This document shows, piece by piece, positions 5,915-30,778 of a stretch of DNA of 32,000 nt (positions are counted from its first letter, which is position 1; each line of letters starts with the position of its first letter). This stretch comes from Planctomycetales bacterium. Lineage in GTDB: Bacteria > 4484-113 > JAFGCY01. A program made the translations under genes and the position numbers. The DNA is taken from NCBI GenBank assembly GCA_022646745.1, contig CP060262.1, positions 3,840,001-3,872,000 of the forward strand, written 5' to 3'. Below the pieces are notes generated by a model. The model made no database searches. It saw only the letters and a list, made by a program, of their open reading frames with translations, and had not been told where the DNA came from.

Positions 5915-6160
5915 CTACCGGCAGGACTTCGGCTTCCAGTACTTCGGCAACCTGATGTCTTTTAACAGGTCGGCTGGCTCGCATTGCAGAGCTCTGGCAA
6001 TCTGGCAAAGGTTGAGCAGTGCGACGTTGCGTTCTCCTCGCTCGATGGATCCGATGTAGGTCCGATGCAGTCCCGACCGGTAACCAAGCTCCTCCTGTGA
6101 AATGCCCATGGCTTCGCGCAAACGCCGAATATTCAGCCCCAAAGCCTGCTTTACTTCCAC
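5915..6160 (-). CDS. XRE-family helix-turn-helix transcriptional regulator
   Basis: 81-aa ORF with a GTG start. LGLNIRRLREAMGISQEELGYRSGLHRTYIGSIERGERNVALLNLCQIARAL is a canonical HTH_3/XRE signature (Q-x-x-LA...IS..E.G.R.P). It is divergent from the 6232 gene. Confidence 0.85.
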   Translation of the reverse strand: MEVKQALGLNIRRLREAMGISQEELGYRSGLHRTYIGSIERGERNVALLNLCQIARALQCEPADLLKDIRLPKYWKPKSCR

Positions 6161-6177
6161 GAAGTAACGCTAATGAC

Positions 6178-6206
6178 TTGCATTTTATAGGTCTACAGAC
6201 TATAAG
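6178..6206 (+). promoter_or_regulatory. Sigma70-like promoter for the Zn-ribbon/OB-fold gene, in the divergent XRE intergenic region
   Basis: TTGCAT (6178-6183), a 17-nt spacer, then TATAAG (6201-6206). It lies about 26 nt upstream of a GGAGG Shine-Dalgarno and ATG 6232. Confidence 0.4.
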
Positions 6207-6231
6207 TAGCAGGACAATGTTGGAGGTGACA

Positions 6232-6942
6232 ATGACTGGATCAACATCCTCTTGTGAATTGTGTGGCAGGGAGCTCGCGGAGCATTACCAATCTACTGTC
6301 TGCAGAGTCTGCAAACAGGAATTCGAGGACCTCAAGCAGCGCTCAGAACAGGCATCAGAATCGACTCTTTCTTTATCGGATGTGCCTATAGAGTCTGCGG
6401 CATCTTCCAATGTCTCCAATCCCAGCACCACTTCCAAGGAAGCAGCCGCTGCCAAGGAATCAGTCTTACCTCAATCCAGGATGCAGATCGAGAATGGCCA
6501 AAAAGCGAAGGTAACGACTAGAACAATCAGCTGCTTGGTGACAATCTTTACGGCAGTGGTGATCTGGGCAATGTTCTTCAATCCATTCACTGACAGTTTG
6601 AGATCCTATGGCAACGCTGTCTCAGCATCCACCCTCTATAAGGAGTTCGAGGACAACGAAATCGCCGCCAACAGCAAGTGGCAGAACACCTTCGTGATTG
6701 TCACGGGAAAGATCGACTCCATCAAGTCGGAGCTGGGTACTCTGGATTCTCATCGGGCCTACATCATGCTTGACGGAAGCGGCACATTTCGAGGTGTTCA
6801 GTGTGTTTTCGAGAAGTGGAATAAGCAGAAGTTCAGCTCTCTGAAAGCCGGGCAGAAGGTGACGATCGAAGGAAAGGTCCTGGGACAGCTGGACACGGGG
6901 GCTGTCCTGGTCTACGACTGCAAGTTCTTCTCAGCGGATTGA
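6232..6942 (+). CDS. Membrane-anchored protein: N-terminal CxxC...CxxC zinc ribbon, one TM helix, C-terminal OB-fold (tRNA_anti-like family)
   Basis: GGAGG at 6222-6226 precedes ATG 6232. The track start at 6019 overlaps the XRE gene, and ATG 6217 is an alternative. Motifs are CELCGRELAEHYQSTVCRVC (zinc ribbon) and ISCLVTIFTAVVIWAMFF (TM). LYKEFEDNEIAANSKWQNTFVIVTGKIDSIKSELG...AYIMLDG resembles the tRNA_anti-like OB-fold signature (L..ey..Ne.aAd.kY.gk.i.vtG.v..i). Confidence 0.7.
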   Translation: MTGSTSSCELCGRELAEHYQSTVCRVCKQEFEDLKQRSEQASESTLSLSDVPIESAASSNVSNPSTTSKEAAAAKESVLPQSRMQIENGQKAKVTTRTISCLVTIFTAVVIWAMFFNPFTDSLRSYGNAVSASTLYKEFEDNEIAANSKWQNTFVIVTGKIDSIKSELGTLDSHRAYIMLDGSGTFRGVQCVFEKWNKQKFSSLKAGQKVTIEGKVLGQLDTGAVLVYDCKFFSAD

Positions 6943-6978: not shown

Positions 6979-7863
6979 ATGGATCAGAATCTCACTACTT
7001 CAGGAGCCATTGCGCAAGCAATTCGTGGGCATAATCGCTTGGTTCAAGCTGTGTTGTTGTATTTTGAATGGCAAGTTCAATATTTTGGCGGGTTCTGTTT
7101 AGATACCAATGATTTATATTTGTTTCTCAAATCCAATGGAGTGATGAAAGGCAACCAGCGACTAAATGACTTGCTACTGAAGAAGCTCTTAGTACATGAA
7201 GGTAAGTTCATCCTGTCAATCGATAATGGTGATGGACAGCATAACTATTCCAGGATGGAAGATGTACTGCCTCAAGAGCGGATTCCTCTATGCAGTCTGT
7301 TCATTGAATTAGGGTTTAGATATGATGTGTTGACAACTTCTGCAGGTCTTTCATCTCGGCAGTCCAGATATCCACAACTTAAGCCGTGCTGGATTTACAA
7401 GGCCAGTTCCAGTTCGAAGGTGATGTTGACAAATCAGGACGTCCGGGCTCCAGCGAAAAAGAAGGAGTTTCAATATGATGAGAATGGCAAGTTGATTTCA
7501 GATTCTAGCCAGGCTTTGAAATCCGCAAATAAACTCAGAAGTGACAACTCAGCTAAGAACGGGAAGTCCCGAAAGAAAAAGTCGCGATCTAAGGGTTCAA
7601 AGCAAAATGCTGCCAATGGATCCAAAACGAAGCAGAACACCAATACTGATAAGGCAGTAGATCTATACCAAATCCTTGAGCGTATTGTGCGTGCTGAGTT
7701 GGCTGGCAAGGTCCCTCAGTACATACTGGATCGATACGACCAGCGTCTCAAAGACAAGGAAACAGAGAAACAGAGACAGAAAACTAAGCTTGCCAGGAAA
7801 GATGGAGATGCATGGCATTCCGTCATTCTGAATGGAACAGGCGGCAAGTTTAAGAAGAAGTAA
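6979..7863 (+). CDS. Hypothetical protein with a Lys/Ser/Asn-rich, very basic C-terminal half
   Basis: 294-aa ORF from an ATG, AT-rich relative to its neighbours. The basic low-complexity stretch is KSRKKKSRSKGSKQNAANGSKTKQNTN. I recognise no family motif. Confidence 0.55.
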   Translation: MDQNLTTSGAIAQAIRGHNRLVQAVLLYFEWQVQYFGGFCLDTNDLYLFLKSNGVMKGNQRLNDLLLKKLLVHEGKFILSIDNGDGQHNYSRMEDVLPQERIPLCSLFIELGFRYDVLTTSAGLSSRQSRYPQLKPCWIYKASSSSKVMLTNQDVRAPAKKKEFQYDENGKLISDSSQALKSANKLRSDNSAKNGKSRKKKSRSKGSKQNAANGSKTKQNTNTDKAVDLYQILERIVRAELAGKVPQYILDRYDQRLKDKETEKQRQKTKLARKDGDAWHSVILNGTGGKFKKK

Positions 7864-13900: not shown

Positions 13901-15215
13901 ACAAATATATAGACAGATACCAATTTTAGTGAGTTTAACTACTCATGGTGAATTGGACTGGTCTGTCAATTTGTCAACAATGATCCACTTGACCAATGAT
14001 TCAAACTTGTTAATTCCAAATGATAACGATGTTCATGCAGATTTACCAACAGCAATGGAAAATGATGAAACCCTGTCACCAACTTTCCTGCGCTTGTTTG
14101 AAGGAAAAATGGGACATCAATATGATCACAGATTTGCGGGTTATTATGAGAGTGACTATGTTCTAACGCCTGTTAGGAACAAAATAGATCCTTTGTTTCA
14201 GATTCGTTCTAAGTATTTAATGAACTTAAATGATTTCATCGTTGTTGGATCAAAGTGGCACGAATCTAGTGCATCTTGCTTTCTAGGATTTCGTCGCGTA
14301 TCTAGAAATAATGATGAGAGAACTAGTATCGCCTGTATACTTCCGCAAGAGCCAAATACTTATGGATGGATTGTTTCATTAGGAATTTCAGGAAGTGAAC
14401 AATGCCTTCTATTGGCCAATTACAATTCCTTTATATTAGATTACTGTTTACGTAACACATTAAGCCAACCTAGTATTCCCCAAGGGACTTTCGAGCAACT
14501 CCCTGTGTTGCCACCATCAACTTATAAGCAAGCAACCCCTTGGCAGGCCGAGCTCACACTCTCCGACTGGATCAGGCCGCGTGTGCTGGAGCTGTCATAC
14601 ACCGCCTGGGACTTGGAACCCTTTGGACGGGATCTTGTCAGCGTGGCAGATCAGTCCTTCCGCGACTATGTCAAGGCCGTACCCTTCGACCCGGCAAAAG
14701 TGCCCTACAACCTGGATCACCTGCTGGGGAGGCCTGGTATCAGTCAGGCAAATGGAGCTGCGGCGCAAGTCGGACAACCGTACGCTAACAATGATGATCT
14801 TGTAGTTGATGGACACATCGAAGAAGTTGCAACACCCTTCACCATCCCGCCCTACCGCTGGGACGAGGCTCGGCGCTTTCTGCTCCGTTGCGAACTAGAC
14901 GCGGCCTACTTCCACCTCTACGGCATCCAGCGTGATGACGTAGACTACATCATGGACACGTTCCCGATTGTCAAACGAAAGGATGAGGCGCAGTACAAGT
15001 TGAAGGTGCTGCCGGGAGAACCGGGCTACCCTGCAAACCCCAGCGAATACAAAGCAGCTGAAGACGGCTCAGTCGAGATCGGCGACTATCGCACCAAGCG
15101 TGTAATCCTGGAGATCTACGACGAAATGGCGCGCGCTCAAATGCGCGGCGTGCATTATAAGACGAGACTAGAACCACCTCCGGCCAGCCCGGAGTGCCAG
15201 CATGATTGGGAGTAG
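10965..15215 (+). CDS. drmMI: Large gamma-class N6-adenine DNA methyltransferase (YeeA/Eco57I-like), DISARM DrmMI-like
   Basis: 1416 aa. The SAM-binding motif I is VCDPACGSGHFLLAAARRI and catalytic motif IV is VLGNPPWERVK. GSYYTPPQLVNELI is present. Family-typical C-terminal motifs are EGKMGHQYDHRF and RCELDAAYFHLYGIQRDDVDYIMDTFPIVKRKDE...GDYRTKRVILEIYDEM. GGGGGA precedes ATG 10965. Confidence 0.85.
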   Translation: MSNYPAIRIEGGLISSDLLDQISAAELPGLKPADFGLPAKRNLTDEIAAIFAEARAQYEVFKSRRDRLQVDDIGTSTTRDFWMIPLLSTLGYQMTYNPKAYEAGGLSFAISHRAGDDEDSLPLHIVGFRQELGKLPASGRPRMAPHTLVQEYLNRTEHVWSIVSNGLTLRVLRDCSFIRRQAYIEFNLEQIFEDQRFPEFRLLYMLLHRSRFPQGIDDSESCLIEQYYKHSVEQGGRVRENLRDGVEQCIEMLANGFLSHSANDSLRNKLTLPSSDPDHLSAISLYRQLLRLVYRFLFLLVSEERGLISSDPAYRKYYGISRLRKAVDNRSAYSAYDDIWQGLRVLWQVLSDERMAAMFNAAPLNGELFAHQTLDSCSIHNKDFLEALHRLVYYEEKKGAPLRRVNYAALDVEELGSVYESLLEFHPEISKNGRGLPSFELVSGSERKTTGSYYTPPQLVNELIRSALEPVIEERLQAVKDKVPDRTSLDYKQRASKSLLGLRVCDPACGSGHFLLAAARRIGKELARVVSGEEEPAPDQTRESVREVISHCIYGVDKNPLAVDLCRVALWLESHYGEKPLSFLDHHIRCGDSLIGIFDLHVLSQGIPDAAYKDLEGDDKEVARKWKKVNKEQREGGNSLFGVDPGQALDQLAQAGREVDQLGDDSPEAVRRKKQVYIQNHNDEHWLQLKTACDMWCAAFFQPYQKGQPAITTEHVNDVLGNRPVDERLNGIALEYSEKLPFFHWPLEFPEVFADGGFDVVLGNPPWERVKLQEKEFFASRDSKIANAANKAARDRMIKALLQQSENSHQWQLYQSFREAKREAEAISQILRNSDQYPLCGRGDVNTYSVFAERNRNLIRPTGRVGCIVPTGIATDDTTKFFFQDLMRTKSLASLYDFENRAKLFPAVDSRMKFCLLTLTGLQVGVSKGADFVFFAHESSDLNEDWRHFRLTDADIALLNPNTMTCPVFRGARDAEITKQIYRQIPILVSLTTHGELDWSVNLSTMIHLTNDSNLLIPNDNDVHADLPTAMENDETLSPTFLRLFEGKMGHQYDHRFAGYYESDYVLTPVRNKIDPLFQIRSKYLMNLNDFIVVGSKWHESSASCFLGFRRVSRNNDERTSIACILPQEPNTYGWIVSLGISGSEQCLLLANYNSFILDYCLRNTLSQPSIPQGTFEQLPVLPPSTYKQATPWQAELTLSDWIRPRVLELSYTAWDLEPFGRDLVSVADQSFRDYVKAVPFDPAKVPYNLDHLLGRPGISQANGAAAQVGQPYANNDDLVVDGHIEEVATPFTIPPYRWDEARRFLLRCELDAAYFHLYGIQRDDVDYIMDTFPIVKRKDEAQYKLKVLPGEPGYPANPSEYKAAEDGSVEIGDYRTKRVILEIYDEMARAQMRGVHYKTRLEPPPASPECQHDWE

Positions 15216-15945
15216 GAGGTATGAATTGAAAGACATTATAAAAGAATCTATGGAGCGTTCTAAGAATGAGCTAGGTCCTGCGTTTCAGTTTTTTGTGCTT
15301 CCATTAACGCCAGATGCTAGCGGAGAAGTATTCATACCGAATGCTCAACGAGAACCAGCGTGGAACATGTTGATTTACGAACTTCAGCAGTTTGGTTTTA
15401 CTGCAGAGCACTTTTCCGAAAAACTCAATGCAGTATTCGGATCAAGTAATCAACTAGAAGTTCTTCAAGAAATTGCACGACGAGTAGAAGCAGGAAACCT
15501 TCCAGCATTCTATGACGTATTTAAGAGGTACCCAGAATTTAAACAGAATTACAGCAAACTATCTGACGGCACTTACTTCTTCGCTGTTGGCGATCCTGAA
15601 TATTTCTACTTACGGGGCTTGCTGAATACTGCCACAGATGTTCGTAGAGAAAATGAACAGGAAACAACTAGAAAGCACGAGTTCAGATTGGGTTTACTCA
15701 ATACAATTGTCGCTGCGCTCATCACTGCTACTACAACAATTCTAATCGCGATCCCTAGCTGCATTAACAATGAGTATGAGGGCCTAGAGAAGGCTATTGG
15801 AGATACTAACAGCAAGCTGGTTGATTTGCAGAGAGTTATACAAGATAAGCAAGTCGCAGGTGAAGTGGAGATTTCGAATGACGTGCTTTCTGTTGAGCTT
15901 GAACAGGACAATCCGCAGCAGGTCAATCATTCCGGAGCAAACTAA
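15202..15945 (+). CDS. Hypothetical single-pass membrane protein (about 165-aa N-terminal domain, TM helix, coiled-coil-like tail)
   Basis: 247-aa ORF. The TM segment is LGLLNTIVAALITATTTILIAIP. ATG 15202 overlaps the methylase end by 14 nt. TTG 15226 is an alternative start, 6 nt after a strong AGGAGG (15214-19). The TAA at 15943-45 lies 1 nt before the next ATG. A sampled line has about 40% GC. Confidence 0.6.
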   Translation: MIGSRRYELKDIIKESMERSKNELGPAFQFFVLPLTPDASGEVFIPNAQREPAWNMLIYELQQFGFTAEHFSEKLNAVFGSSNQLEVLQEIARRVEAGNLPAFYDVFKRYPEFKQNYSKLSDGTYFFAVGDPEYFYLRGLLNTATDVRRENEQETTRKHEFRLGLLNTIVAALITATTTILIAIPSCINNEYEGLEKAIGDTNSKLVDLQRVIQDKQVAGEVEISNDVLSVELEQDNPQQVNHSGAN

Positions 15946-15946
15946 G

Positions 15947-17026
15947 ATGCCCCTGACTGAAGACATTCGTGCCGAAGCTGTCCAACGCTACTTCCGTGAG
16001 CGCGATCGATATGCAAAACTCGCCGAAGCAGTAGAGCACCGTGTTCGCCAAGTCGTTGATTTTCGCATGGTGCATGCAGTAATCCAGAGCAGAGTCAAAA
16101 CCGTCGAAAGCTTTAATGGCAAGCTTTTACGTTGGATGAAGAATGGCAGCAAGGACGATGAGATCAACTCGGTGGATGATGTGTTTCGTGTAATGGGCGA
16201 CCTGGCAGCGGTCAGAGTGCTGACCTACCTGGAAGAAGACAGAGAGAAGGTAGTCGAAATGTTCTCCCAGGCTTTCGTCAATAAACAGGGAAATCGGTTG
16301 CGCTCCGCGCCCGGTGATGTAGAAAGGAAACCTGACCCAAACGACACGAGTGGAAAGTCCAGCCAGAATTATCGCGCTACACATTGCAGGGTATTTCTGC
16401 ATGAGGATGAGTGTGAAGGTGTGCATGAGAACCTATCAGGTACGCCATGTGAGATCCAGGTCTGCAGCCTGCTTGCCCATGTCTGGAACGAGATTGAGCA
16501 CGATATCGGATATAAGCCATACGGTGGCGAATTGAGCACGGATGAGAAGAAGTATCTACAGCAACTCGCGGACCTGACAGTTGACGGTGATGTGATTATC
16601 AAGCAGCTGATTGCGGCATCGAATGCCAAGGCTTATGAGCTTGAGGGCGATTTCAAGAACCAGCAGGACTTCTGGTTCAGGCTGAAAGAATTGATCGGTT
16701 TCCCAGCAGACATGTCGCTGGTTGATGAGACGTATTACGAGATGATCGCCTGCGGTCTGAAATCACCATTGGATGTACAGACTAAGTTGCTTACCGGCGA
16801 CTACCATAAGAGGGCTCAGCAACTCATCCGGGACTTCAACCAGTATTGTGAAGAAAAGGAATTGACAATTAGGTTAGAGGTTGATGAATGGCTCACCGTA
16901 CTTTTCGTATCGGAGTGCTGGCAGCAGATCCTGAAGCGTGCAGATAAGAAGGTCCAAAAAGCTCATCCACGACGAATCGTGACAATCGCCGAATCAATGA
17001 AGAGGATGCTAAAGGGCGGAAAATGA
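15947..17026 (+). CDS. RelA/SpoT-homologue (RSH) nucleotide pyrophosphokinase domain protein, small-alarmone-synthetase/toxSAS-like, with a C-terminal extension of about 130 aa
   Basis: All four synthetase-domain motifs occur in order: SRVKTVESFNGKLLR (R.K...S...K), GDLAAVRVLTY (D.aG.R), NYRATHCRVFL (Y.s.H) and CEIQVCSLLAHVWNEIEHDIGYKP (EiQirt...h.Wa..eH...YK). I take ATG 15947 as the start, since the track's 15797 start overlaps the previous gene. The stop overlaps the helicase start (ATGA at 17023-17026). Confidence 0.75.
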   Translation: MPLTEDIRAEAVQRYFRERDRYAKLAEAVEHRVRQVVDFRMVHAVIQSRVKTVESFNGKLLRWMKNGSKDDEINSVDDVFRVMGDLAAVRVLTYLEEDREKVVEMFSQAFVNKQGNRLRSAPGDVERKPDPNDTSGKSSQNYRATHCRVFLHEDECEGVHENLSGTPCEIQVCSLLAHVWNEIEHDIGYKPYGGELSTDEKKYLQQLADLTVDGDVIIKQLIAASNAKAYELEGDFKNQQDFWFRLKELIGFPADMSLVDETYYEMIACGLKSPLDVQTKLLTGDYHKRAQQLIRDFNQYCEEKELTIRLEVDEWLTVLFVSECWQQILKRADKKVQKAHPRRIVTIAESMKRMLKGGK

Positions 17027-20000
17027 CAATCTTCGACCTACATGCATCTGTTCTCTCCGACTACCGGGAGTTTGTCCGCGCCTACTTTTCCGTAGCTGAT
17101 GAGCGTGTCCGCGCTTTCATTGACAAGGCACTGGAAGAGGACAAAACGCTCTGGCCAGACTACCTGCTGCAACTCAGCCCCTCCTACAAGCGTGTTGCCA
17201 CGGTGGACGAACTGGCCCAGCAGGGAAGCCTCCAACAGGAGACTGCACGAGTCTTCCAAACAGACGAGGGTGAGCCTTATTGGCTGTACAAACACCAGGT
17301 TGAAGCAATCGAGAAGGCAGCCCAGGGGCAGAGCTACATCGTCACGAGTGGCACAGGCTCCGGTAAGAGCCTGACCTACTTCATCCCCATCGTGGATTCC
17401 CTGCTGCGCAATCCACACGGGGGCAACTCCGTCGCAGCGCTGGCCATCTTCCCGATGAATGCGCTGGTCAATTCCCAGCGCCAGGCCCTGCAGAAACTGC
17501 AGGATGGCTACCAGAGCAGATACACAAATGAGTTCCCGTTCACGTTCGAGAAATACACAGGCGACACATCCAGCACACGGCGCGAGGAACTGCGCAACCA
17601 TCCGCCTCAGATCATGCTGACCAACTATGTGATGGCGGAGCTGATGCTGGTGCGCCCCGAGGACCAGGTATTCCTCAACCGCAAGGATGGCGGCCTGCGC
17701 ATGCTGGTCTGCGACGAGCTGCATACCTACCGTGGCAGGCAGGGTGCAGATGTGGCAATGCTGATCCGCCGTCTGAAAGAGCGCTGTGCCGCAGAAGGCC
17801 TGCTGCATATCGGCACCAGTGCCACTATGGTCTCGGACAAGGATGTCAGCCCGGTAGCCCGCAGGGAGGCCGTATCCGACTTCGCCTCTCGCTTCTTCGG
17901 CCACAGCTTCAACGAAAACCAGGTGATAGAGGAAACCTTGGTCACATTCACGGAAGGCTCTGCCCCTACCCAATCAGAACTGCAAAACGCAATGCAGGCT
18001 CCCCTGCCCCAGACAGCAGCTGAACTGAAGCAACATCCAATTGTCCGCTGGGCTGAGTATGGATTCGGAGTGGAGCCCGATGCTGAAGGGCAGCTCAGGA
18101 GACGGACACCACGCACGCTCGCTGATGCCGCTGCCGAACTGGCAGCTGCGAGTGTAGTCAGTGAAGCCGAATGTGAAGCAAAGCTGCAGGAACTGCTGGC
18201 GGTCAGCGGAAACCTTGCCAGGGAGGGAGCCGGCAGCGCGATGGCTTTCAAGCTGCACCAGTTCATCGGCCAGGGCCGGGCGATCTACTCCTCATTTGAA
18301 TCCACTGATGAGCGGATATTCAGCATGGATGGCCAGCTCGTCGCCTCAGAAGGGCGCAGGCTGGCACCGATCAAGTTCTGCCGAACCTGTGGACAGAATT
18401 ACTACCACGTCCAGCAGGGCATGCATGAGTTCCTGCCCCAGCCGCTGGGCTGGCTGAGCGAGGAAGAGGAAGGAAACCAGGAAGGCTACCTGATGATCGC
18501 TCCGGCGGAAAACAACTGGAGCGAGGAGCAGATCCCGCAGGAATGGTATGACGCCAGGGGCCGGCTATCCTCGACTTGGAAGGAGCGGGTGCCGCGGCAG
18601 GTCTGGGTTGACATTGAAGGTGGATACAGCACCGCTGACACTGCCAACGGCCTGTGCATGTGGTGGCAACCAGCCCCATTCGCGATCTGCCTGAACTGTG
18701 GGGAGTACTACACGAGGCGGGAGAAAGACTTCACCAAACTGGCATCGCTGTCAAGTGAAGCCCGCTCCAGTGCAACAACCGTCATTGCTGCCTCAGTCCT
18801 GCGCCATACTTCCCATGCAGGCACGGCAGCCAGCAAGCTGCTTTCATTCACGGACAACCGCCAGGATGCAGCTTTGCAGGCTGGTCACTTCAATGATTTC
18901 GTGAAAGTATCGGGTCTGCGGGCAGCCCTCTATGCAGCTCTCAAGGACAAGGGGCATCTCACCTATGAGAATGTTGCCAGGGAAACCCTGGCACACAGTG
19001 GCCTGACAATCCGGGATATTGCTGAGAATGCCCAGTTGAACCCGCAGGCACAGGCTGCCCAGAAGGTCTGGGAAATATTCCAGGAGCTGACCGAGTACAG
19101 GCTGTACAACGACCTGCGCAGAAGCTGGCGAGTTGTCCAGCCGAACCTGGAGGATGTCGGATTGCTCAAGATGGGTTTCCGAGACCTGGATGAAGTGACT
19201 GGCAACGACCATCTCTGGCACTGGCATCCGGCAGCAGCCCATATGTCGGTGGCAGACCGAAAACGCCTGGTTGAAACAATCCTCAGGCAGTTCCGCCAGA
19301 AACTGGCGATCAGCTGCGGTGTACTAACAGAAACCAGGCAGCAACAGATTCGAAAGAAGGCTGAGCAGCAACTAAATGAGTTCTGGGGTCTGGATCACGA
19401 GATAGATGAGTTGAGCACTGCTCGCCAGTACGTGCAGTTAGGTGAAGCAGACAGGTTGCCGTACTCAGCAATCTACCTTACATATAGAAGTGCAATCGGC
19501 CGCTTTATCAGAACATCCCTTAGCCTCAGCACAGATGAATATGATGCAGCTCTCACCGGTCTGCTTGAAATGCTCGTCGGACAAGGATTCCTGCGCAGGC
19601 TTGATCCCGTGGAGGACCATCAGATTTATCAACTGGATGCGTCCTGCCTGCTTTGGCAACTTGGCGATGGCAGCCCACCCCCACCCGATCCGATGTATGT
19701 TCGTCGCGGAACAGCATCAGGCTACTCAGATGTTCAAGTGCCAGTGAATCAATTCTTCAAGAGCTTCTACAGTGAACAGGCTGCTGCAATGGCTGAGTTC
19801 GAAGCTCGCGAGCATACGGCGCAGGTTGTCATGCAGGGTGAACGAGAACGAAGGGAACGTAGGTTCCGCTGGGAGGACAGTGACACCGCAAAGGAAAGCG
19901 AGCTTGGTAGAAGGCTGCCATACATCGTCTGCTCGCCGACCATGGAGCTCGGGATTGACATCGCGGACCTTGACATAGTGCATATGCGTAACGTCCCGCC

Positions 20001-22083
20001 CACACCTGCTAACTACGCCCAGCGCAGCGGTCGAGCGGGACGGCAAGGCCAGCCGGGCCTCGTCTATACATACTGCGGTGCCTTGAACAGTCACGACCAG
20101 TACTTCTTCAATCGCCGGGAAGACATGGTTGCAGGAAGCGTCAAAGCTCCTCGACTGGATCTAGGTAATGAAGCGCTTCTAAAGGCTCATATCCATGCAA
20201 TGTGGTTGGCAAAGGTCCGCCTGCCACTTGGACAGTCAATCGAAAATGTGCTTGACGTCGAAAGCGACGGCCAACCGTTGAACGAGAATGCGGCAGGCCA
20301 GATTCAACTGAAAGACCCAGTCATTAATGAACTAGGAATGAGCATACACAAGATCCTGAATGAGGAACTTGAAGTCGGCGGGTCCATGCCGGGAGTCTCC
20401 CTTGAATGGATCAGGAATGTCCTTGCCACCGCCCCGGAGCAGTTTGACAGGGCCTTCGATCGCTGGCGCGAACTATATGATGCATCCGAAAAGCAGTTTG
20501 ATGCAGCCATGAAGGCCAGAAGGAAGGCAAGGACTAAAGATGACCAGCTTGCCGCATCCATACAGGAAAGGGAAGCTGAGCGCCAGCGAAACCTGTTGCT
20601 GCAGATTGACACACAACGTGAAGAAAGCGACTTCTACCCTTATCGCTATCTGGCAAGTGAGGGTTTCCTGCCTGGATATAACTTCCCTGCCCTGCCAGTG
20701 CGCGCTTGGATTTCACGGGCTGGTGGAGAGTATATTGCCAGACCAAGATTCCTTGGTGTGCGCGAGTTTGCACCTGGCAACATCATCTATCACGAAGGTG
20801 TCAAATGGCAGGCCGATTCCTTCCAGGTTCCTCCCGGCGGCTTGTCAGAGCGGACATCACGAAAGCGGATCTGCCAAAGTTGCGGTGCATTCTGTGAACC
20901 GGAACTGGATCTCTGCCCGGCATGCCATACCAGATTTGATGCCGGAAACAGCACTTTTATTTCTGTTCTTGAAATGCCAAATGTCAAGGCAAGAAAGAGA
21001 GACCGCATTACCTCCAATGAAGAGGAAAGAAGGCGGCGCGGATTCGAACTCGAAACCAGTTTCCAGTTTGCACCAGAGGATGGACGCGTAAGAGTACAAA
21101 AGGCAGACGTTTACATTGGCGACAACCCGGCTATTCAGCTGACTTACGCCCCGGCAGCGACAATCATGAAGATCAACAATGGCTGGCGCTCCGGAAACCA
21201 TACCGGGTTCCTGATAGACATGGAGACTGGGACTGTTGTCAGCGGAGAGGAAGGAGCACCATCGATTGCTTCACAACTAAGTCTCCAGAATGTCAGACTG
21301 ATGGTAAGGGGAACGCATAATCTGCTGCTCCTGAACATCAATCCCAGCTACATGGAAGTGAGCACGGGATTCCTGGCAACTCTTCAATACGCCTTGCAGC
21401 GAGGTTGTGAATCCGTTTATCAACTAGAAGAGTCAGAACTTTCAGCGGAGAGGATTGGCGAACTTGAACATAAGTCCATCATGTTCTACGAGTCCAATGA
21501 AGGTGGCGCTGGAGTCCTGGAACGGATTATCATGCGCCCGGATGCAATTGCTCGCATCGCTGAGGAAGCACTGATCAGATGCCACTTTAAACCGACAGGT
21601 GAAGACATCAAACCGAACTGCGAAGCTGCCTGTTACGAGTGCCTACTCAGCTTTGGGAATCAGCATGAAGCATTGATGATAAATAGGCATGACATCAGAC
21701 AGAATCTGGTGGATCTGACTGGTTCAAGGACACTGACGAGATATGGCGACAGGAACTGGCATGAACACCTTGCCTGGCTAGAGTCACTGACTGACTCCAG
21801 ATCAGAGATTGAACGAAAGTTATTATCTGCACTAGTGGATGGCAACTACCGACTGCCTGACCAGGCACAGAAGTCGATAGATCAGCTCAAGTGCATTCCG
21901 GACTTCTTCTTTGAGCCGAACGTCTGCGTATTCTGCGATGGCACTGTTCATGACGAGCCCAATCAGAAGAAGAAGGATAAGGAGCTTCGTGAGGAGCTGA
22001 AACTTCAAGGGTACAGAGTTGAAGTGATCCGCTATGACCAGCCCTTGGATAAACAGGTCAAGAAAATGATGCGGAATATGTAA
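17023..22083 (+). CDS. drmA-drmB: Fused DrmA-like DEAD/DEAH (DELH) helicase, DrmB-like DUF1998 (MrfA Zn-binding) domain and C-terminal Vsr/DUF559-like nuclease fold
   Basis: 1686 aa. The helicase motifs are motif I VTSGTGSGKSLTY, motif II LVCDELHTYRG and motif III IGTSATM. The helicase C-lobe, CSPTMELGIDIADLDIVHMRNVPPTPANYAQRSGRAGRQGQPG, comes only after a roughly 700-aa insertion. DUF1998-like elements are CQSCGAFCEPELDLCPACH, MFYESNEGGAGVLERI and CEAACYECLLSFGNQHE. The C-terminal 96 aa carry ERKLLSAL...IPDFFFEPNVCVFCDGTVHD...DKELREELKLQGYRVEVIRY. Confidence 0.8.
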   Translation: MTIFDLHASVLSDYREFVRAYFSVADERVRAFIDKALEEDKTLWPDYLLQLSPSYKRVATVDELAQQGSLQQETARVFQTDEGEPYWLYKHQVEAIEKAAQGQSYIVTSGTGSGKSLTYFIPIVDSLLRNPHGGNSVAALAIFPMNALVNSQRQALQKLQDGYQSRYTNEFPFTFEKYTGDTSSTRREELRNHPPQIMLTNYVMAELMLVRPEDQVFLNRKDGGLRMLVCDELHTYRGRQGADVAMLIRRLKERCAAEGLLHIGTSATMVSDKDVSPVARREAVSDFASRFFGHSFNENQVIEETLVTFTEGSAPTQSELQNAMQAPLPQTAAELKQHPIVRWAEYGFGVEPDAEGQLRRRTPRTLADAAAELAAASVVSEAECEAKLQELLAVSGNLAREGAGSAMAFKLHQFIGQGRAIYSSFESTDERIFSMDGQLVASEGRRLAPIKFCRTCGQNYYHVQQGMHEFLPQPLGWLSEEEEGNQEGYLMIAPAENNWSEEQIPQEWYDARGRLSSTWKERVPRQVWVDIEGGYSTADTANGLCMWWQPAPFAICLNCGEYYTRREKDFTKLASLSSEARSSATTVIAASVLRHTSHAGTAASKLLSFTDNRQDAALQAGHFNDFVKVSGLRAALYAALKDKGHLTYENVARETLAHSGLTIRDIAENAQLNPQAQAAQKVWEIFQELTEYRLYNDLRRSWRVVQPNLEDVGLLKMGFRDLDEVTGNDHLWHWHPAAAHMSVADRKRLVETILRQFRQKLAISCGVLTETRQQQIRKKAEQQLNEFWGLDHEIDELSTARQYVQLGEADRLPYSAIYLTYRSAIGRFIRTSLSLSTDEYDAALTGLLEMLVGQGFLRRLDPVEDHQIYQLDASCLLWQLGDGSPPPPDPMYVRRGTASGYSDVQVPVNQFFKSFYSEQAAAMAEFEAREHTAQVVMQGERERRERRFRWEDSDTAKESELGRRLPYIVCSPTMELGIDIADLDIVHMRNVPPTPANYAQRSGRAGRQGQPGLVYTYCGALNSHDQYFFNRREDMVAGSVKAPRLDLGNEALLKAHIHAMWLAKVRLPLGQSIENVLDVESDGQPLNENAAGQIQLKDPVINELGMSIHKILNEELEVGGSMPGVSLEWIRNVLATAPEQFDRAFDRWRELYDASEKQFDAAMKARRKARTKDDQLAASIQEREAERQRNLLLQIDTQREESDFYPYRYLASEGFLPGYNFPALPVRAWISRAGGEYIARPRFLGVREFAPGNIIYHEGVKWQADSFQVPPGGLSERTSRKRICQSCGAFCEPELDLCPACHTRFDAGNSTFISVLEMPNVKARKRDRITSNEEERRRRGFELETSFQFAPEDGRVRVQKADVYIGDNPAIQLTYAPAATIMKINNGWRSGNHTGFLIDMETGTVVSGEEGAPSIASQLSLQNVRLMVRGTHNLLLLNINPSYMEVSTGFLATLQYALQRGCESVYQLEESELSAERIGELEHKSIMFYESNEGGAGVLERIIMRPDAIARIAEEALIRCHFKPTGEDIKPNCEAACYECLLSFGNQHEALMINRHDIRQNLVDLTGSRTLTRYGDRNWHEHLAWLESLTDSRSEIERKLLSALVDGNYRLPDQAQKSIDQLKCIPDFFFEPNVCVFCDGTVHDEPNQKKKDKELREELKLQGYRVEVIRYDQPLDKQVKKMMRNM

Positions 22084-23713: not shown

Positions 23714-25249
23714 CTACTCCACCGAGATAATTTCAGTCCCAGCTTTTCGTATCTCCCTGACCAAGGAAGCCAAACCGTCATCAAAAAGCTCTATCAGCAC
23801 CTCCCCCTTTGCAACCGTCACAGACTTGACTAGCAGCTTGGCAATCCGCTCCTGCTCGCGCGGGAACAGGTTGTCCCAGATCCGGTCGAAGACCTGCAGC
23901 TCATTGGCCACCTCACCCTTAGAGATGGGAGCCAGTTCCAACCTGTTACATTGAGCTGTGATTTCCTTGAGCTCTCCATCCAATTGCTTCTGACGACCTG
24001 AAGTCCGTACTCCTTCTTCCGATTGATTGGATTGAATGAGAGATTCAAGCTTCTGTTTACGCGCTATGAGTATCTTCAACGTCCGCTCCCGCTCTCCATC
24101 CAGCTGCTTGAGTACCGTTAGATAGACCTCATCAGTCCGTAGTGCAACCCTGATTTGCTCTACGACCAATGCTTCAAGCTGCTTAGCCGGAACTGAAGGA
24201 TTAGGGCAGAAGCGGTACCCCTTATTCCGTGCAGTTCGACAGACGTACTCGTAGTATGCACGCTCACGCGGACCTGCATACTTGGGGGCCATGGGCTCGT
24301 TACAAGACTTGCAGAATACGATGTGCTTGAGCAGAGCCTGAATCTCGCTCCGTTCTCGACTGTGTTTGATGTAGGCGTTCTGGTTCAATAAACTCTGTAC
24401 CCTGTCAAACAGCTCTTTGGCAACTATCGGCTCTTGCAGTCCCGGGAATGTTTCACCTGTTCGGTGGTACTCCTCTACACCGATGTAAGTACGATTGGCC
24501 AGCAGTCTGGATATATAGGACATGGTGAAAGGACCCGGATCATGAGGTTCTCCGTTCTTCATGGTCCAGGTTTTTCGAGTTTTGCCTTCAGCGTTCAACT
24601 CGCGGACTAGGTCTCCTTTCTTGGGCTTATCCGCAAAACGCTGAAAAATCTCATTGACCAGCTTCGCCTCTTCCTTGTTTACGATGTACTGCTTAGTGAC
24701 CGGGTCAATGTCGTAGCCAAGAATCGGCCGACCCCCGGTACGCATTCCGCGCTTCCTCATTGCATATGCCTTCTCTCTCTGGCGCTCACATGTGATGTCT
24801 ACTTCAAATTCGGCGAATGTCATTAAGATGTTGATCAGCATTCTTCCCGCTGCAGTTGATCCGTCAATCTCCTGTTGCACGGAAACTAGGCCTACGTTGT
24901 TTTTTTCCAGGATTGGAATGACTTGCTGGTACTCAGACATGCGGCGGACGAGACGATCAAGTCTATGAACAATTAGAATATCGAAATTCTGATCTTGAAT
25001 ATCATGCATTAACTGCTTGAACTGAGGTCTGTTGTTGCTACGCGCAGTGATACCCGCTTCCCGGTACTCATGGAAAAACGTCCAGTTATTGCATGCGTTG
25101 TTTTCGATCTTTTCTAGGCAAGTAGCAAGTTGGTTATCTAAGGAAGTAAACTCAGTATTGAGTCCTTCTTCACTGCTGACCCGGGTGTAAATGGCACATC
25201 TTATTACTTGTGATGAACTCTGTAGTTTGATCTCGGAAGTTCTATTCAT
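23714..25249 (-). CDS. Large serine recombinase (resolvase catalytic domain, recombinase domain, zinc-ribbon, coiled coil)
   Basis: The catalytic N-terminus RCAIYTRVSSEEG carries the Ser nucleophile. LIVHRLDRLVR and STAAGRMLINILMTFAEFE (E-helix) are present. The recombinase domain includes GGRPILGYDID. The Zn ribbon is CKSCNEPM...YEYVCRTARNKGYRFC. I prefer ATG 25249, 7 nt after GAGGAG. The track start is 25303. Confidence 0.85.
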   Translation of the reverse strand: MNRTSEIKLQSSSQVIRCAIYTRVSSEEGLNTEFTSLDNQLATCLEKIENNACNNWTFFHEYREAGITARSNNRPQFKQLMHDIQDQNFDILIVHRLDRLVRRMSEYQQVIPILEKNNVGLVSVQQEIDGSTAAGRMLINILMTFAEFEVDITCERQREKAYAMRKRGMRTGGRPILGYDIDPVTKQYIVNKEEAKLVNEIFQRFADKPKKGDLVRELNAEGKTRKTWTMKNGEPHDPGPFTMSYISRLLANRTYIGVEEYHRTGETFPGLQEPIVAKELFDRVQSLLNQNAYIKHSRERSEIQALLKHIVFCKSCNEPMAPKYAGPRERAYYEYVCRTARNKGYRFCPNPSVPAKQLEALVVEQIRVALRTDEVYLTVLKQLDGERERTLKILIARKQKLESLIQSNQSEEGVRTSGRQKQLDGELKEITAQCNRLELAPISKGEVANELQVFDRIWDNLFPREQERIAKLLVKSVTVAKGEVLIELFDDGLASLVREIRKAGTEIISVE

Positions 25250-25745
25250 GTGACCGCTCCTCATTGTCATAAAGGAATGAAGCTGAAAATTGCCATAGCG
25301 CATTCATTGTTAAGCGGCCGGCCGCAGTTGTTGTGTCAACCGCCTGATTCACTGACACGAATCCAACATCAGCCTGTGTGAGCTGAGACAGAAAGTCGCA
25401 CATGTCCCTACTGCTTCGCCAGAGCCGATCAAAGCTGGCAACCAGTATGACGTCCAGTTGGCCTTTGCCAAGGTCTGCAAGCATTCGCTGAAGAGCAGGC
25501 CGGTGCTTATCAGCTGCACCGTAACTACCGTCATAGTATGTGGCGGTGACGCGCCACATATCATCAGCTCGAGCTGATACATAACTGGAGCAGCGTTCAT
25601 ATTGGTTAATCAGAGCAGCGCACTCTGTTGGCAGGCCTTCTTCTGTTCTGGCTCTGGTATATATGCCACAGCGCACGATTGTCGAGGGTGTATGACTTGA
25701 ACCGCTCCTGACACTTGAATCGTTTCTGACAGATGAATGACACAT
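25242..25745 (-). pseudogene. Degenerate, truncated resolvase-domain ORF (Arg at the Ser-nucleophile position; ends within the E-helix)
   Basis: It reads VRCGIYTRARTEEG where the neighbour has IYTRVSSEEG. It retains ILVASFDRLWRS and TTAAGRLTMNALWQF, then diverges and stops (167 aa from ATG 25745). AAGGAG lies 6 nt before that ATG. It overlaps the next gene by 8 nt. It may still be translated. Confidence 0.55.
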
Positions 25746-25755
25746 AGTTGTCTCC

Positions 25756-26211
25756 TTAGCTTGGAATTCCCCACCACTTCCGACCGTTCTTCTTACTTCC
25801 AGCAATTGCAACTGCGGCTGCAGAGGGAGATGTGTACCGCTTGCCGTTGACATCTACTCCCTGATCCAGGATTGTCAATGTATAATCCTGACCTCTATAG
25901 ACTCTTCGATAGGTGGTCCCAGCTGGTGGCAGCCACCGCTTCCGCTGTACCACTTTTCCCTTTTGAAGAAACGTAACGCCTCCCAGGGGATTGATCTGTC
26001 GCTCCTCTAATGCGCGATTCAGTTGCCCCCTTGCAACTTCCGAAATTCCTCCGTGATGCATTTCCTGTATTCTGTAGCTCAGGCGACGGATCAGGTGGCT
26101 GCGCGAGTATGCAGGGGGCTCTGTTCCAATCAAATCAGACCACCTCTGCTTCAGCTCATCAGTTGAAGATTTCTCTAACTCTGCCAGTGCAACCAACACT
26201 TGATCATTCAT
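25756..26211 (-). CDS. DUF2924-family protein (recombinase-module accessory)
   Basis: LAELEKSSTDELKQRWSDLIGTEPPAYSRSHLIRRLSYRIQEMHHGGIS matches my recollection of the DUF2924 N-terminal signature (L..L....L...W..lfg.ePp.....fL..rlayriQe...GgLs). I take ATG 26211, 5 nt after GGAGG, as the start. Confidence 0.7.
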   Translation of the reverse strand: MNDQVLVALAELEKSSTDELKQRWSDLIGTEPPAYSRSHLIRRLSYRIQEMHHGGISEVARGQLNRALEERQINPLGGVTFLQKGKVVQRKRWLPPAGTTYRRVYRGQDYTLTILDQGVDVNGKRYTSPSAAAVAIAGSKKNGRKWWGIPS

Positions 26212-28440: not shown

Positions 28441-28458
28441 TCACGCCGCAGGCGTGAC
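28440..28458 (-). terminator. Hairpin immediately after the ftsH stop codon (no U-tract)
   Basis: gtcacgcc-gca-ggcgtgac has a perfect 8-bp stem abutting the TAG stop. No T-run follows on the minus strand, so it is not a canonical intrinsic terminator. Confidence 0.3.
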
Positions 28459-30446
28459 TAGCCCGCCGGGGCCGGGCCGGGGCGCCAGGGCTGGTCCGGC
28501 TGCTTGCCATTGCTCTCCGAGCGTGACTTCTCCGCCCTCTCGCGCTCACGCAGGGCCGCCGTGGTGGCACCGCTGCGCTTGATCGGGAATGGCGTGAAGT
28601 CGGCCGGCGGCTCCTCGTCCATCAGGCGTACGAAGTCGTCACGGTCCAGCTGCTCCTCACGGATCAGGATGCTCGCCAGGTAGTCCATCTTGCGACGGTT
28701 CTCCCTGAGCACTTCCAGCGCGCGCGCGTAGCAACCCATCACGAGCTTGCGCACTTCCTCGTCGATGCGGAAGGCCACCTCGTCCGAGTAGTTGCGGTCC
28801 TCGCCGAAGCTCTTGCCAAGGAAGGGGTTCTCGTTGGCACGGCCGAACTGGATCGGGCCCAGCTCCTCGCTCATGCCGTATTTGGTGATCATGTCGCGGA
28901 TCATCTGCGTCGAACGCTCGAGGTCGTTGGAGGCACCGGTGGTGATGTCGCCAAACACGATCTCCTCCGCAGCCCGGCCGCCGAGCGCCATGCTGACGCG
29001 GTCGAGGATCTGCTTCTTGCTGACCAGGAAGCGGTCCTCCGCCGGGAAGTTGAGCGTGTAGCCCAAGGCCTGGCCGCGCGGCAGGATGCTGATCTTGTGC
29101 ACCGGGTCGGTGTTCTCCAGCTCGTGGCTGACAATCGCATGCCCCAGCTCGTGGTAGGCGATCACCTGCTTCTCATGCTCGTTGATGATGCGGCTCTTGC
29201 GCTCCGGGCCGGCCACCACGCGGTCGACGGCCTCGAACAGGTCCTCGCTCGAGATGCGGGTCTCGCCGCGGCGCGCCGCCAGCAGCGCGGCCTCGTTGAC
29301 ACTGTTCTTCAGGTCGGCACCGCTGAAGCCCGGCGTACGCTGGGCCAGCGCTTTTAAGTCGATGTCAGCGGACATCGGCTTGTTCTTGGTGTAGATCTCG
29401 AGGATGCGGATGCGGCCGCCGAGGTCCGGGGCGTCGACAACCACGCGGCGGTCGAAGCGGCCGGGACGCAGGAGCGCCGGGTCCAGCACATCGGGACGGT
29501 TGGTGGCCGCCAGCACGATGATGCCGCTGTTGGCCTCGAAGCCATCCATCTCGACGAGCATCTGGTTCAGGGTCTGCTCACGCTCGTCATGCGTGCCGCC
29601 GATGCCGGTACCGCGATGGCGGCCGACGGCATCCAGCTCGTCAATGAAGATCAGGCATGGGGCGCGGCGCTTGGCCTGGTCGAACAGGTCGCGCACGCGG
29701 CTGGCACCGACGCCGACGAACATCTCGACGAAGTCGGAACCGCTGATGTAGAAGAACGGCACATTGGCTTCGCCGGCCACGGCCTTTGCGAGGTGCGTCT
29801 TGCCGCAGCCCGGAGGGCCGATGAGCAGCACGCCCTTCGGGATCTCCGCCCCGAGCGCCTCGTATTTCTTGGGATCGCGCAGGAAGTCCACGACTTCCCG
29901 CAGCTCCTCTACCGCCTCGTCCACGCCGGCGACATCGGCAAAGGTGATCTTCTTCTTGCCGTCACTCGCCAGGCGCGCCCGGCTCTTGCCGAAGTTGATC
30001 GCCTGGTTGTTGCCACCGGATTGCATCTGGCGGTTCATCAGCCAGAACAGGAACACGATCGGGATCGTGAACACCGCCACCAGGAGCAGCGTGTTCGGAC
30101 TGAGCAATGTGTCCCAGAAGCTGACGGGCACGATGTCGAACTTGACGTTGTTCTCCCGCATCATGCCGATCAGTTCATCCGTGAACTCAGTCTCGATCAC
30201 GGCTGTGAAGGCGTCCTTGTTGTCATGGCTCTTGATCGCCTCGGCGCCCGGCTTGAACTTGCCGATCACACGGCCGGAGTTCTTCTCGATGTTGAGCTCC
30301 ATCACCTCGCCGTTGTTGATCCGGTCCACGAGTTCACTGAACCCGATCGAGACCGTGTTGGCGGACTTGAGGTACTGCAGCATCATCACCACGATGATGA
30401 TCACCCCGAAGGTCAGGAGAATTTGTGAGAAACGATTTGTCTGCAT
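28458..30446 (-). CDS. ftsH: ATP-dependent zinc metalloprotease FtsH
   Basis: Two N-terminal TM helices are present. Walker A is [18 protein letters not shown] and Walker B is [11 protein letters not shown]. The second region of homology is [21 protein letters not shown]. The Zn protease motif is HELGHAIV. I prefer ATG 30446 ([20 protein letters not shown]); the track's 30617 start adds an implausible 57-aa leader. Confidence 0.95.
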
Positions 30447-30778
30447 AAATATATTTAAATGTGTCAGAGTTTCCGCTAGGGGGAAAATCTTAACACATCC
30501 TGAGATTGTACCCTTGATGCCAGGACGCTGCCGTCCCGGCCGGCTGGCCACCCGCTTCCTTAGACGAAGCAAAGGGCGGATTGGTTTTATCAATCGCGGG
30601 AAACACGCCGATGGCAAACTTCCCGGGAGCTTTTACCTCGTTAAGCGGGGAGCTATTTCAGCTATCCCGCGGCAGGCTCTTTGCAATCAGCCCCCCCCGA
30701 TTCGATATCGGTATATGAACCGCCGGACTTAATCACAGTCCTAATGCGGTACTGAAAGTGACCGAAAAGGAGATTTCC

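Follow-up and report, generated by a model that had tools for sequence, protein, structure and literature searches.

An RSH synthetase nested in a DISARM-like operon represents a family recurrently embedded in modification-based defense loci

RelA/SpoT homologues (RSH enzymes) are known as stress regulators and, more recently, as toxins (toxic small alarmone synthetases, toxSAS), as a sensor of phage capsids (CapRel), and as a nucleoid-damage effector (PANGU). A gene for a 359-amino-acid RSH protein is found in a 32,000-nucleotide stretch of DNA from a Planctomycetales bacterium (GenBank assembly GCA_022646745.1, contig CP060262.1, positions 3,840,001 to 3,872,000 of the forward strand). This whole stretch is referred to as the window, and coordinates of open reading frames (ORFs) and junctions are positions within it, on the + strand unless stated otherwise. 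The gene follows that of an orphan membrane protein, ORF247, and both are nested between the methylase and helicase genes of an operon that resembles DISARM (defense island system associated with restriction–modification). The RSH protein belongs to a widespread family that recurs in loci of modification-based defense, and the gene is a passenger that related operons lack. The likeliest account, held with moderate confidence, is that it encodes a self-contained, embedded pyrophosphokinase of the abortive-infection type, carried as an accessory passenger in a variable cargo slot of a DISARM/Druantia-like operon.

A conserved synthetase with a family-specific C-terminal domain

Judged from its sequence, the 359-aa protein is a genuine RSH synthetase and apparently catalytically competent. 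The initial annotation, made from the DNA and its translations, had recognized four RSH motifs in order, and all four are present in the translation: SRVKTVESF at residues 48-56, GDLAAVRV at 84-91, YRATH at 142-146, and EIQVCSLLAHVWNEIEHDIGYK at 169-190. This reading is borne out by Pfam RelA_SpoT (PF04607), which matches residues 48-191 with 38.8 bits (E 1.2e-9), above its gathering score of 27. It is equally borne out by an AlphaFold2 model built on 96 homologues, which has a nucleotidyltransferase-type synthetase fold (predicted local distance difference test, pLDDT, 93.2; predicted template modeling score, pTM, 0.82). Foldseek searches of the PDB return CapRel (9ERV, 7ZTB), RelQ/SAS1, RelP, and Rel with probability 1.0, and target template modeling (TM) scores for the small synthetases RelQ, RelP, and SAS1 are 0.67-0.75. 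Among PDB sequences, a family profile picks up RelQ- and RelP-type chains and no others (best E 8.8e-7). The protein falls into no named RSH subfamily in PADLOC, NCBIfam, or the PDB sequences, which gave only weak PDC-S33, sub-threshold YjbM, and RelQ-type matches.

The enzyme looks active because its catalytic residues are invariant in all 96 homologues: R49, K51, D85, R90, the G-loop tyrosine Y142, H146, E169, Q171, H178, N181, E182, D186, Y189, and K190. The serine of the RxKxxxS motif is present in 67 of them. The family has the signature CEIQVCSLLAHVWNEIEHD, and the IQVCS sequence that stands in place of the usual IQIRT, which the initial annotation had taken as a peculiarity of the window gene, turns out to be common to the whole family. 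Three cysteines are likewise characteristic, C147 being found in 96/96 and C173 in 94/96 homologues, and C168 being invariant in a 25-sequence alignment. These cysteines (window 16385-16465) lie on the two strands that bear H146 and the catalytic E169 and Q171, and may form a candidate metal or redox site replacing the usual arginine of IQIRT.

The synthetase domain is followed by a C-terminal extension that, as first stated, can be placed in no family; its length, initially put at about 130 aa, is about 165 aa (residues ~195-359). In the model, a long helix (residues 198-233) leads into a bundle of six more helices, and the domain modeled alone with AlphaFold2 reaches a pLDDT of 89. It is conserved at full length in homologues of 350-370 aa, which is about the size of family members in general (~350-370 aa). 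Its fold has no Foldseek match in the PDB (best E 1.0) or among the viral structures of BFVD (best E 0.48), and a profile search matched RSH-family proteins or their fragments only, with no other architecture containing the domain. The domain is acidic throughout the family, with a net charge of -10 in the window protein and a mean of -9.8 (range -4 to -17), negative in 96/96. It ends in a basic tail, which carries +9 in the window protein (residues 326-359) and a mean of +3.8 over the 96. An AT-hook-like tail motif, HPxGRGxGRPxR (GRGxGRPxR), is found in 79/96 sequences, in alignment columns that correspond to window residues 335-345; the window protein and the two relatives nearest to it carry KAHPRRIV at this place.

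Distribution of the family and its genomic neighborhoods

The RSH family gave 409 matches at E <= 0.001 in a collection of 5.8e9 proteins. Scanning 185,579 genomes, one for each GTDB species, yielded 120 confirmed loci, a patchy distribution that points to horizontal transfer and not to a core function. Neighborhoods were counted in the best 80 of these 120 loci, selected by two peptide patterns. Genes at these loci are crude mechanical ORF calls clustered by BLAST, and clusters are named from a PADLOC/Pfam scan of one representative each. On this basis, 47 of the 80 loci place the RSH gene with modification-based defense, namely type 1 BREX (bacteriophage exclusion), dnd-pbe, type I restriction–modification (R-M), or DISARM-like genes.

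The dnd-pbe context accounts for 25/80 loci. Here the RSH gene lies upstream of pbeABCD and beside dndBCD(E)A, in the order RSH, a ~870-aa sigma-like helix-turn-helix (HTH) protein, a PLD/DEAD helicase (PbeA, 894 bits), an SMC-like ATPase, and a 160-aa protein. A RefSeq-annotated example is plasmid pRspNXC14a of Rhizobium sp. NXC14, in which gene sizes fit the pbeABCD of PMC6459918. In these 25 species, pbeABCD is thus preceded by two extra genes, for the RSH enzyme and for the ~870-aa HTH protein with a Sigma70_r4 domain (L001:9989-18329; L082:12001-20156, the latter from the Rhizobium sp. NXC14 plasmid), and the RSH stop frequently overlaps the start of the HTH gene. Such a six-gene version of the phosphorothioate-dependent Pbe module has apparently not been described.

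Type 1 BREX operons hold the RSH gene at 18/80 loci, in the gap between pglX and pglZ or in that between brxC and pglX, and a 19th case (L086) comes from IMG/VR. At least three loci are of the type I R-M kind, arranged hsdM-hsdS-RSH (L042, L066) or hsdM-RSH (L034). The sole other DISARM-like locus among the 80 is L052, with the order RSH, SNF2, methylase. Defense neighbors of other kinds occur at three loci, as an OLD-family ATPase-TOPRIM protein (L002, L038) or AIPR (L010). The genes are co-oriented, and many of their junctions are overlaps of 1-4 nt.

No conserved small neighbor gene or antitoxin accompanies RSH across the contexts of the 80 loci. One candidate, C17 (~79 aa, Bacteroidota), varies in position and distance and sits beside housekeeping genes, and was judged to reflect lineage synteny. 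A phage origin of the family was also considered and rejected: IMG/VR gave three weak or contextual matches, one of which is a BREX operon, and a Vibrio phage record holds one distant RSH. Family members are present on Rhizobium plasmids too.

In a distance-based neighbor-joining tree without bootstrap, the Dnd-linked and the BREX-linked RSHs form two near-monophyletic clades, each spanning phyla, and a separate, deep-branching clade unites the window protein with P0002 and P0003. The window gene and the RSH gene of L052 are not sisters in this tree; DISARM-like operons therefore gained an RSH gene at least twice. Within BREX, the position of the gene differs even between sister sequences (brxC/pglX versus pglX/pglZ; L071 versus L079).

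An optional passenger in a variable cargo slot

Three metagenomic contigs (L083, L084, and L085) encode helicases 57-59% identical to that of the window operon, and L083 also has its SNF2 protein (57% identity) and methylase (52%). In L083 the methylase gene is followed by a 100-aa ORF with a sub-threshold Phd/YefM match (23 bits), which overlaps an 83-aa ORF, and then by the helicase gene. The 83-aa ORF has no Pfam match; by our reading, its N-terminus (MIAYLDSSALVKRYV...) resembles that of a truncated PIN toxin. Both ORFs recur in L085, together with a DDE transposase of the insertion-sequence (IS) type. ORF247 and the RSH gene are both absent from L083 and L085. Because these two contigs hold other cargo there, the methylase/helicase junction is a variable cargo slot. 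GC content at third codon positions (GC3) is 0.572 in the RSH gene, below the 0.59-0.62 of the flanking genes, which counts as a further sign of accessory status.

The RSH gene is thus an optional passenger of the DISARM-like operon and not a DISARM component. The initial annotation had pictured a hybrid system specific to DISARM, a view that fails on the two related operons without ORF247 and RSH and on the presence of the family in BREX-1, dnd-pbeABCD, and type I R-M loci. It had also suggested surveying neighborhoods for a pair of ORF247 and RSH recurring between methylase and helicase. RSH does recur with defense genes, but not as part of such a pair, and in L052 it lies upstream of SNF2.

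The closest homologues of the window protein offer further contexts. P0002, the nearest at 54% identity, comes from a 1.7-kb contig with no flanking ORFs, and downstream of the gene for P0003 (46%) come a 73-aa ORF and then an Mrr_cat gene.

Relation to known systems

CapRel is an established RSH anti-phage effector (PMC9712102), and it is the top Foldseek match of the window protein (7ZTB, 9ERV; E 4e-7). Both are single polypeptides made of a synthetase and a C-terminal extension (359 aa in the window protein, 343 aa in CapRel), both have the G-loop tyrosine, and neither has a separate antitoxin gene. However, superposition of the full chains is poor (root-mean-square deviation 23-24 A, TM 0.35, 13% identity), and CapRel is not retrieved by the sequence profile of the family. 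The all-helical, acidic C-terminal domain of the window protein matches no PDB structure, including CapRel with its pseudo-zinc-finger domain. Genomic settings also differ: genes of the present family sit within R-M-like operons; CapRel-SJ46, by contrast, is from a Salmonella phage, and CapRel genes were first noted in bicistronic loci of the toxin–antitoxin (TA) kind.

A second point of comparison is the type I PANGU system, in which the GRel toxSAS Pag1B has its synthetase joined through a helical linker to an acidic domain described as 'DNA-mimicking'. Pag1B is activated by a YejK-like nucleoid-associated protein, makes (pp)pGpp, and is anti-phage without a classical antitoxin (bioRxiv 10.64898/2026.04.06.716658). 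The window protein has a like succession of synthetase, helix 198-233, and acidic C-terminal domain, a resemblance of architecture only. Unlike in PANGU, no YejK-like gene accompanies the window RSH; none is found in the seven operon proteins, in the recurrent neighbor clusters, or among the top families listed for 134 neighbors. The family also differs from the toxSAS modules FaRel, FaRel2, PhRel, and PhRel2 in having no conserved adjacent antitoxin gene.

Embedded defense genes have already been described in BREX, DISARM, type I R-M, and Hma operons, and seven of nine tested candidates were validated; 96.7% of embedded genes are co-oriented with their hosts, and 145 PDC candidates were released (Payne et al. 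2024, bioRxiv 10.1101/2024.01.29.577857). As with PrrC in EcoprrI or PARIS and BrxU in BREX, the window RSH is co-oriented and nested between core genes, and its family is found in several types of host system as well as alone. It departs from the validated embedded systems, which are nucleases or ATPases, in its effector chemistry, that of a pyrophosphokinase. The one PADLOC-DB v2 model to match the family was PDC-S33, in 6 of the 8 members tested; these matches are weak (14.7-22 bits, E 2e-5 to 4e-3) and confined to the catalytic region, and we infer that PDC-S33 is a different RSH-like candidate. Neither PDC-S33 nor RelA_SpoT nor PF04607 occurs in the supplements of Payne et al., and the literature searched contained no paper linking RSH enzymes with BREX, Dnd/phosphorothioation, or type I R-M. 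RelA, SpoT, ppGpp, and alarmone also go unmentioned in the Krishnan 2026 survey of auxiliary effectors in BREX.

By profile and by domain structure, the best match of the synthetase domain (residues ~40-195) is to the small alarmone synthetases (SAS) RelQ and RelP (5DEC, 6EWZ, 2BE3), with which it has the ATP and G-loop motifs in common. It differs from them in its low identity (~18-20%), in IQVCS in place of IQIRT, in the family-specific C147, C168, and C173, in the extra 165-aa C-terminal domain, and in the defense-island contexts of its genes.

Proposed mechanism

As regards toxicity, autoinhibition, trigger, and substrate, we infer the following course of events. The RSH enzyme would act as a second-line, self-contained effector of the abortive-infection type. 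In uninfected cells it would be inactive, held in check by its own C-terminal domain or by its oligomeric state, or for want of an activator encoded elsewhere; control of this kind is proposed because no conserved antitoxin gene is present. A phage-derived cue would then switch the enzyme on, and it would move pyrophosphate from ATP to a 3'-OH acceptor. A purine nucleotide may serve as the acceptor, with (pp)pGpp or (pp)pApp as the product; alternatively, the acceptor may be the CCA end of a tRNA. Either route would lead to growth arrest. Because the synthetase domain is not basic (mean net charge -2.9), a nucleotide is weakly favored over tRNA, as a guess.

Several observations weigh against this account. 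The closest solved relatives by sequence are the non-toxic housekeeping enzymes RelQ and RelP, not CapRel or FaRel2. About 30 of the 80 loci have no obvious defense neighbor. In four Dysgonomonas species (L061, L064, L067, L068), the start of the RSH gene shares 8 nt with the end of a preceding nitronate monooxygenase gene, and no defense genes lie nearby. Since the C-terminal domain occurs in no other architecture, nothing indicates that it is a swappable sensor. Finally, the near-monophyly of the Dnd and BREX clades would also fit stable functional integration and not an independent module. The Dysgonomonas subclade, for its part, may have a different role.

Alternative explanations

The main rival account, possible but clearly less probable, makes the RSH enzyme an integrated guard or back-up arm, wired to its modification-based host system. 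Its acidic, possibly DNA-mimicking domain would dock on the DNA-binding methylase or restriction complex, and the trigger would be an anti-restriction protein that disables this complex, such as an Ocr-like DNA mimic, a Stp-like peptide, or an S-adenosylmethionine (SAM) lyase. PrrC with EcoprrI and PARIS with Ocr follow the same logic. Such wiring would agree with the 47 of 80 loci in systems that define self by DNA modification, with the Dnd- and BREX-associated enzymes forming clades of their own across phyla, and with the retention of RSH in BREX despite its repositioning between L071 and L079. The uniformly negative C-terminal domain and the AT-hook-like tail found in most homologues point the same way, and Pag1B provides a precedent for a toxSAS whose acidic C-terminal domain docks a DNA-binding activator. 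However, BREX, DISARM, type I R-M, and Hma operons collect embedded genes of many kinds (Payne et al.), so location alone is no proof of coupling. Members of the family are also solitary or in non-defense contexts, and relatives of the window operon do without RSH. DNA mimicry, moreover, is suggested by charge alone, and the clade of the window protein lacks the AT-hook-like motif.

A bolder and more speculative version extends such wiring to the whole family, which would then be co-evolving, as a dedicated arm, with systems in which DNA modification distinguishes self from non-self. The acidic domain and AT-hook-like tail would tie the enzyme to the host machinery for modification or restriction, and the enzyme would be set off once phage anti-restriction factors block this machinery or the machinery meets unmodified DNA. 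A further possibility is that the acceptor is a nucleic-acid 3'-OH and not a free nucleotide. If true, the RSH enzyme would be the pyrophosphokinase counterpart of PrrC and PARIS, and a nucleic-acid acceptor could help explain how the non-degradative BREX and Pbe systems block phage replication.

It is rather improbable that the enzyme is an addiction or stabilization module, that is, a cis-autoinhibited toxin that retains the operon or island and senses no phage. The cargo of related operons recalls such modules, since their slot holds the sub-threshold Phd/YefM-like ORF and the short PIN-like-reading ORF, and both the two serine recombinase genes beside the operon, on what is probably a mobile island, and the family members on Rhizobium plasmids would suit a retention function. 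Classic post-segregational killing, however, needs a labile antitoxin, and no conserved gene for one lies beside RSH; TA modules embedded in defense loci are, besides, often themselves anti-phage.

The initial annotation had favored a two-gene cassette in which ORF247 and RSH form a TA or sensor–effector pair, a DISARM arm controlled by the helicase complex. In favor of this model, the tight packing stands at all three junctions. The methylase gene ends in TAG at 15213-15215, at the start of ORF247; the TAA of ORF247 (15943-15945) is separated by 1 nt from the RSH ATG at 15947; and the RSH stop TGA (17024-17026) overlaps the helicase ATG at 17023, as ATGA. The deposited ORF247 protein has 239 aa and fits a TTG start at 15226, 6 nt after AGGAGG (15214-15219), and an ATG start would give 15202-15945. 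In the 239-aa form, one transmembrane helix is predicted at about residues 161-179 (Kyte-Doolittle 2.04), and the tail is acidic.

The distribution of ORF247 tells against the pairing. The protein has no match in Pfam, PADLOC, or NCBIfam, and in a word-indexed search of 5.8e9 proteins it matched itself alone. A phmmer search of 1.8e9 representatives gave a single true homologue, P0122, with 239 aa, 30% identity (E 1e-14), and the same architecture; two further hits, P0123 and P0124, are repeat-protein artefacts. The P0122 gene lies in an hsdR-hsdM-hsdS operon, 19 nt downstream of hsdS, and no RSH gene was called in that locus. Next to this sole homologue of ORF247 comes a serine recombinase gene, as one does after the window operon. 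By tblastn, ORF247 has no match in any of the 80 RSH loci. Its GC3 of 0.383 differs from that of the RSH gene, related DISARM-like operons lack both genes, and in L052 the RSH gene lies upstream of SNF2 and is no sister to that of the window. The cassette is accordingly highly unlikely, and ORF247 as a conserved antitoxin or sensor of RSH is contradicted by the 80 loci without it, the RSH-less locus of its homologue, and the differing GC3. ORF247 is a second passenger, acquired separately and with its own link to R-M operons.

Equally remote is an ordinary housekeeping SAS that makes (p)ppGpp for stress physiology and sits in the operon by chance: RelQ- and RelP-type proteins are the closest solved sequences and some members have non-defense neighborhoods, but identity to RelQ and RelP is slight, a C-terminal domain and invariant cysteines set the family apart, its presence within rare defense operons at 47/80 loci is far above chance, and its distribution over species genomes is patchy.

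The host operon and its surroundings

The host operon resembles class 1 DISARM in combining an SNF2 helicase, an N6-adenine methylase, and a DUF1998/MZB helicase in one co-oriented operon (Table 1). It differs in having no DrmC, in its single DruE-like fusion helicase of 1686 aa, and in a DrmD score below the NCBIfam cut-off. The SNF2 protein scores 607 bits with the PADLOC model of DpdE versus 292 bits with that of DrmD, and 329 bits with NCBIfam DISARM_DrmD, for which the cut-off is 610. The methylase scores 283 bits with the DrmMI model of PADLOC. The helicase had first been described as DrmA-like; PADLOC gives it 300 bits for DruE versus 38 bits for DrmA, and it looks like a fusion of DrmA and DrmB. 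No phospholipase D (PLD) domain, as in DrmC, was found by Pfam in the seven co-oriented proteins or in the downstream ORFs scanned, and the operon is therefore called DISARM-like and not canonical DISARM. The helicase C-terminus has a weak DUF559-like match (residues ~1593-1671, window 21790-22083; Pfam E 0.0066), a Vsr-like endonuclease end that might take the place of the absent PLD nuclease DrmC.

Table 1. Features of the window, and the cargo found at the equivalent junction of related contigs.
Feature	Coordinates	Strand	Basis or remark
307-aa ORF, tRNA_anti-like OB fold	6019-6942	+	Pfam
294-aa ORF, function not assigned	6979-7863	+	GC 0.433 (low)
Host gene 1, SNF2 helicase, DrmD-like, 998 aa	7972-10968	+	Pfam SNF2-rel_dom + Helicase_C
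Host gene 2, N6-adenine DNA methyltransferase, DrmMI-like/type IIG-like, 1416 aa	10965-15215	+	Pfam Eco57I, N6_Mtase, MmeI_Mtase
ORF247/ORF239, orphan single-pass membrane protein	15226-15945 (alternative ATG start 15202)	+	No family match
RSH gene, 359 aa	15947-17026	+	Pfam RelA_SpoT
RSH synthetase (toxSYNTH-like) domain, residues ~1-195	15947-16531	+	Pfam RelA_SpoT
C-terminal all-helical acidic domain + basic tail, residues ~196-359	16532-17026	+	Family-specific
Host gene 3, DEAD/DEAH helicase fused to MZB (DUF1998), 1686 aa, DruE-like	17023-22083	+	Pfam DEAD, Helicase_C, MZB
Large serine recombinase (Resolvase + Recombinase + Zn_ribbon_recom)	23714-25303	-	Just downstream of operon
Second resolvase-domain ORF	25242-25853	-	Just downstream of operon
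ftsH	28458-30617	-	Downstream of both recombinase ORFs
Variable junction cargo	L083:7469-8019; L085:3367-5646		Phd/YefM-like + PIN-like ORFs; transposase in L085

No promoter-like or terminator-like site lies within the cassette region (15.2-17.0 kb), which is consistent with read-through transcription, and the RSH gene is probably co-transcribed with its host operon. Direct or inverted repeats, as a transposon footprint, do not flank this region. Within the methylase gene, GC content drops sharply to 0.395 between 13900 and 14600, compared with about 0.54 for the gene, and promoter-like matches on both strands cluster in this trough, which may mark a swapped specificity region or an internal promoter.

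The two ORFs upstream of the SNF2 gene, neither of which has a counterpart in L083, are uncertain members of the operon. Given its low GC and this absence, the 294-aa ORF may perhaps be one more passenger. At the other end, because two serine recombinase genes adjoin the operon, it is probably located on an integrative or mobile island.

Significance

The window RSH combines two known kinds of element, the defense effectors of the toxSAS type and the embedded defense genes. Its family, currently labeled 'GTP pyrophosphokinase', can be annotated among defense candidates by the signature CEIQVCSLLAHVWNEIEHD, the three invariant cysteines, the acidic helical domain, and the GRGxGRPxR tail. Natural paired controls exist in the form of the same operons with and without RSH and of the two RSH positions within BREX. 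A co-transcribed pyrophosphokinase would provide a testable second layer for how BREX, Pbe, and DISARM stop phage and handle anti-restriction proteins. The family thus represents a further, uncharacterized group of RSH enzymes preferentially nested in operons of modification-based immunity, and it is a strong candidate for a new module of back-up defense against phages.

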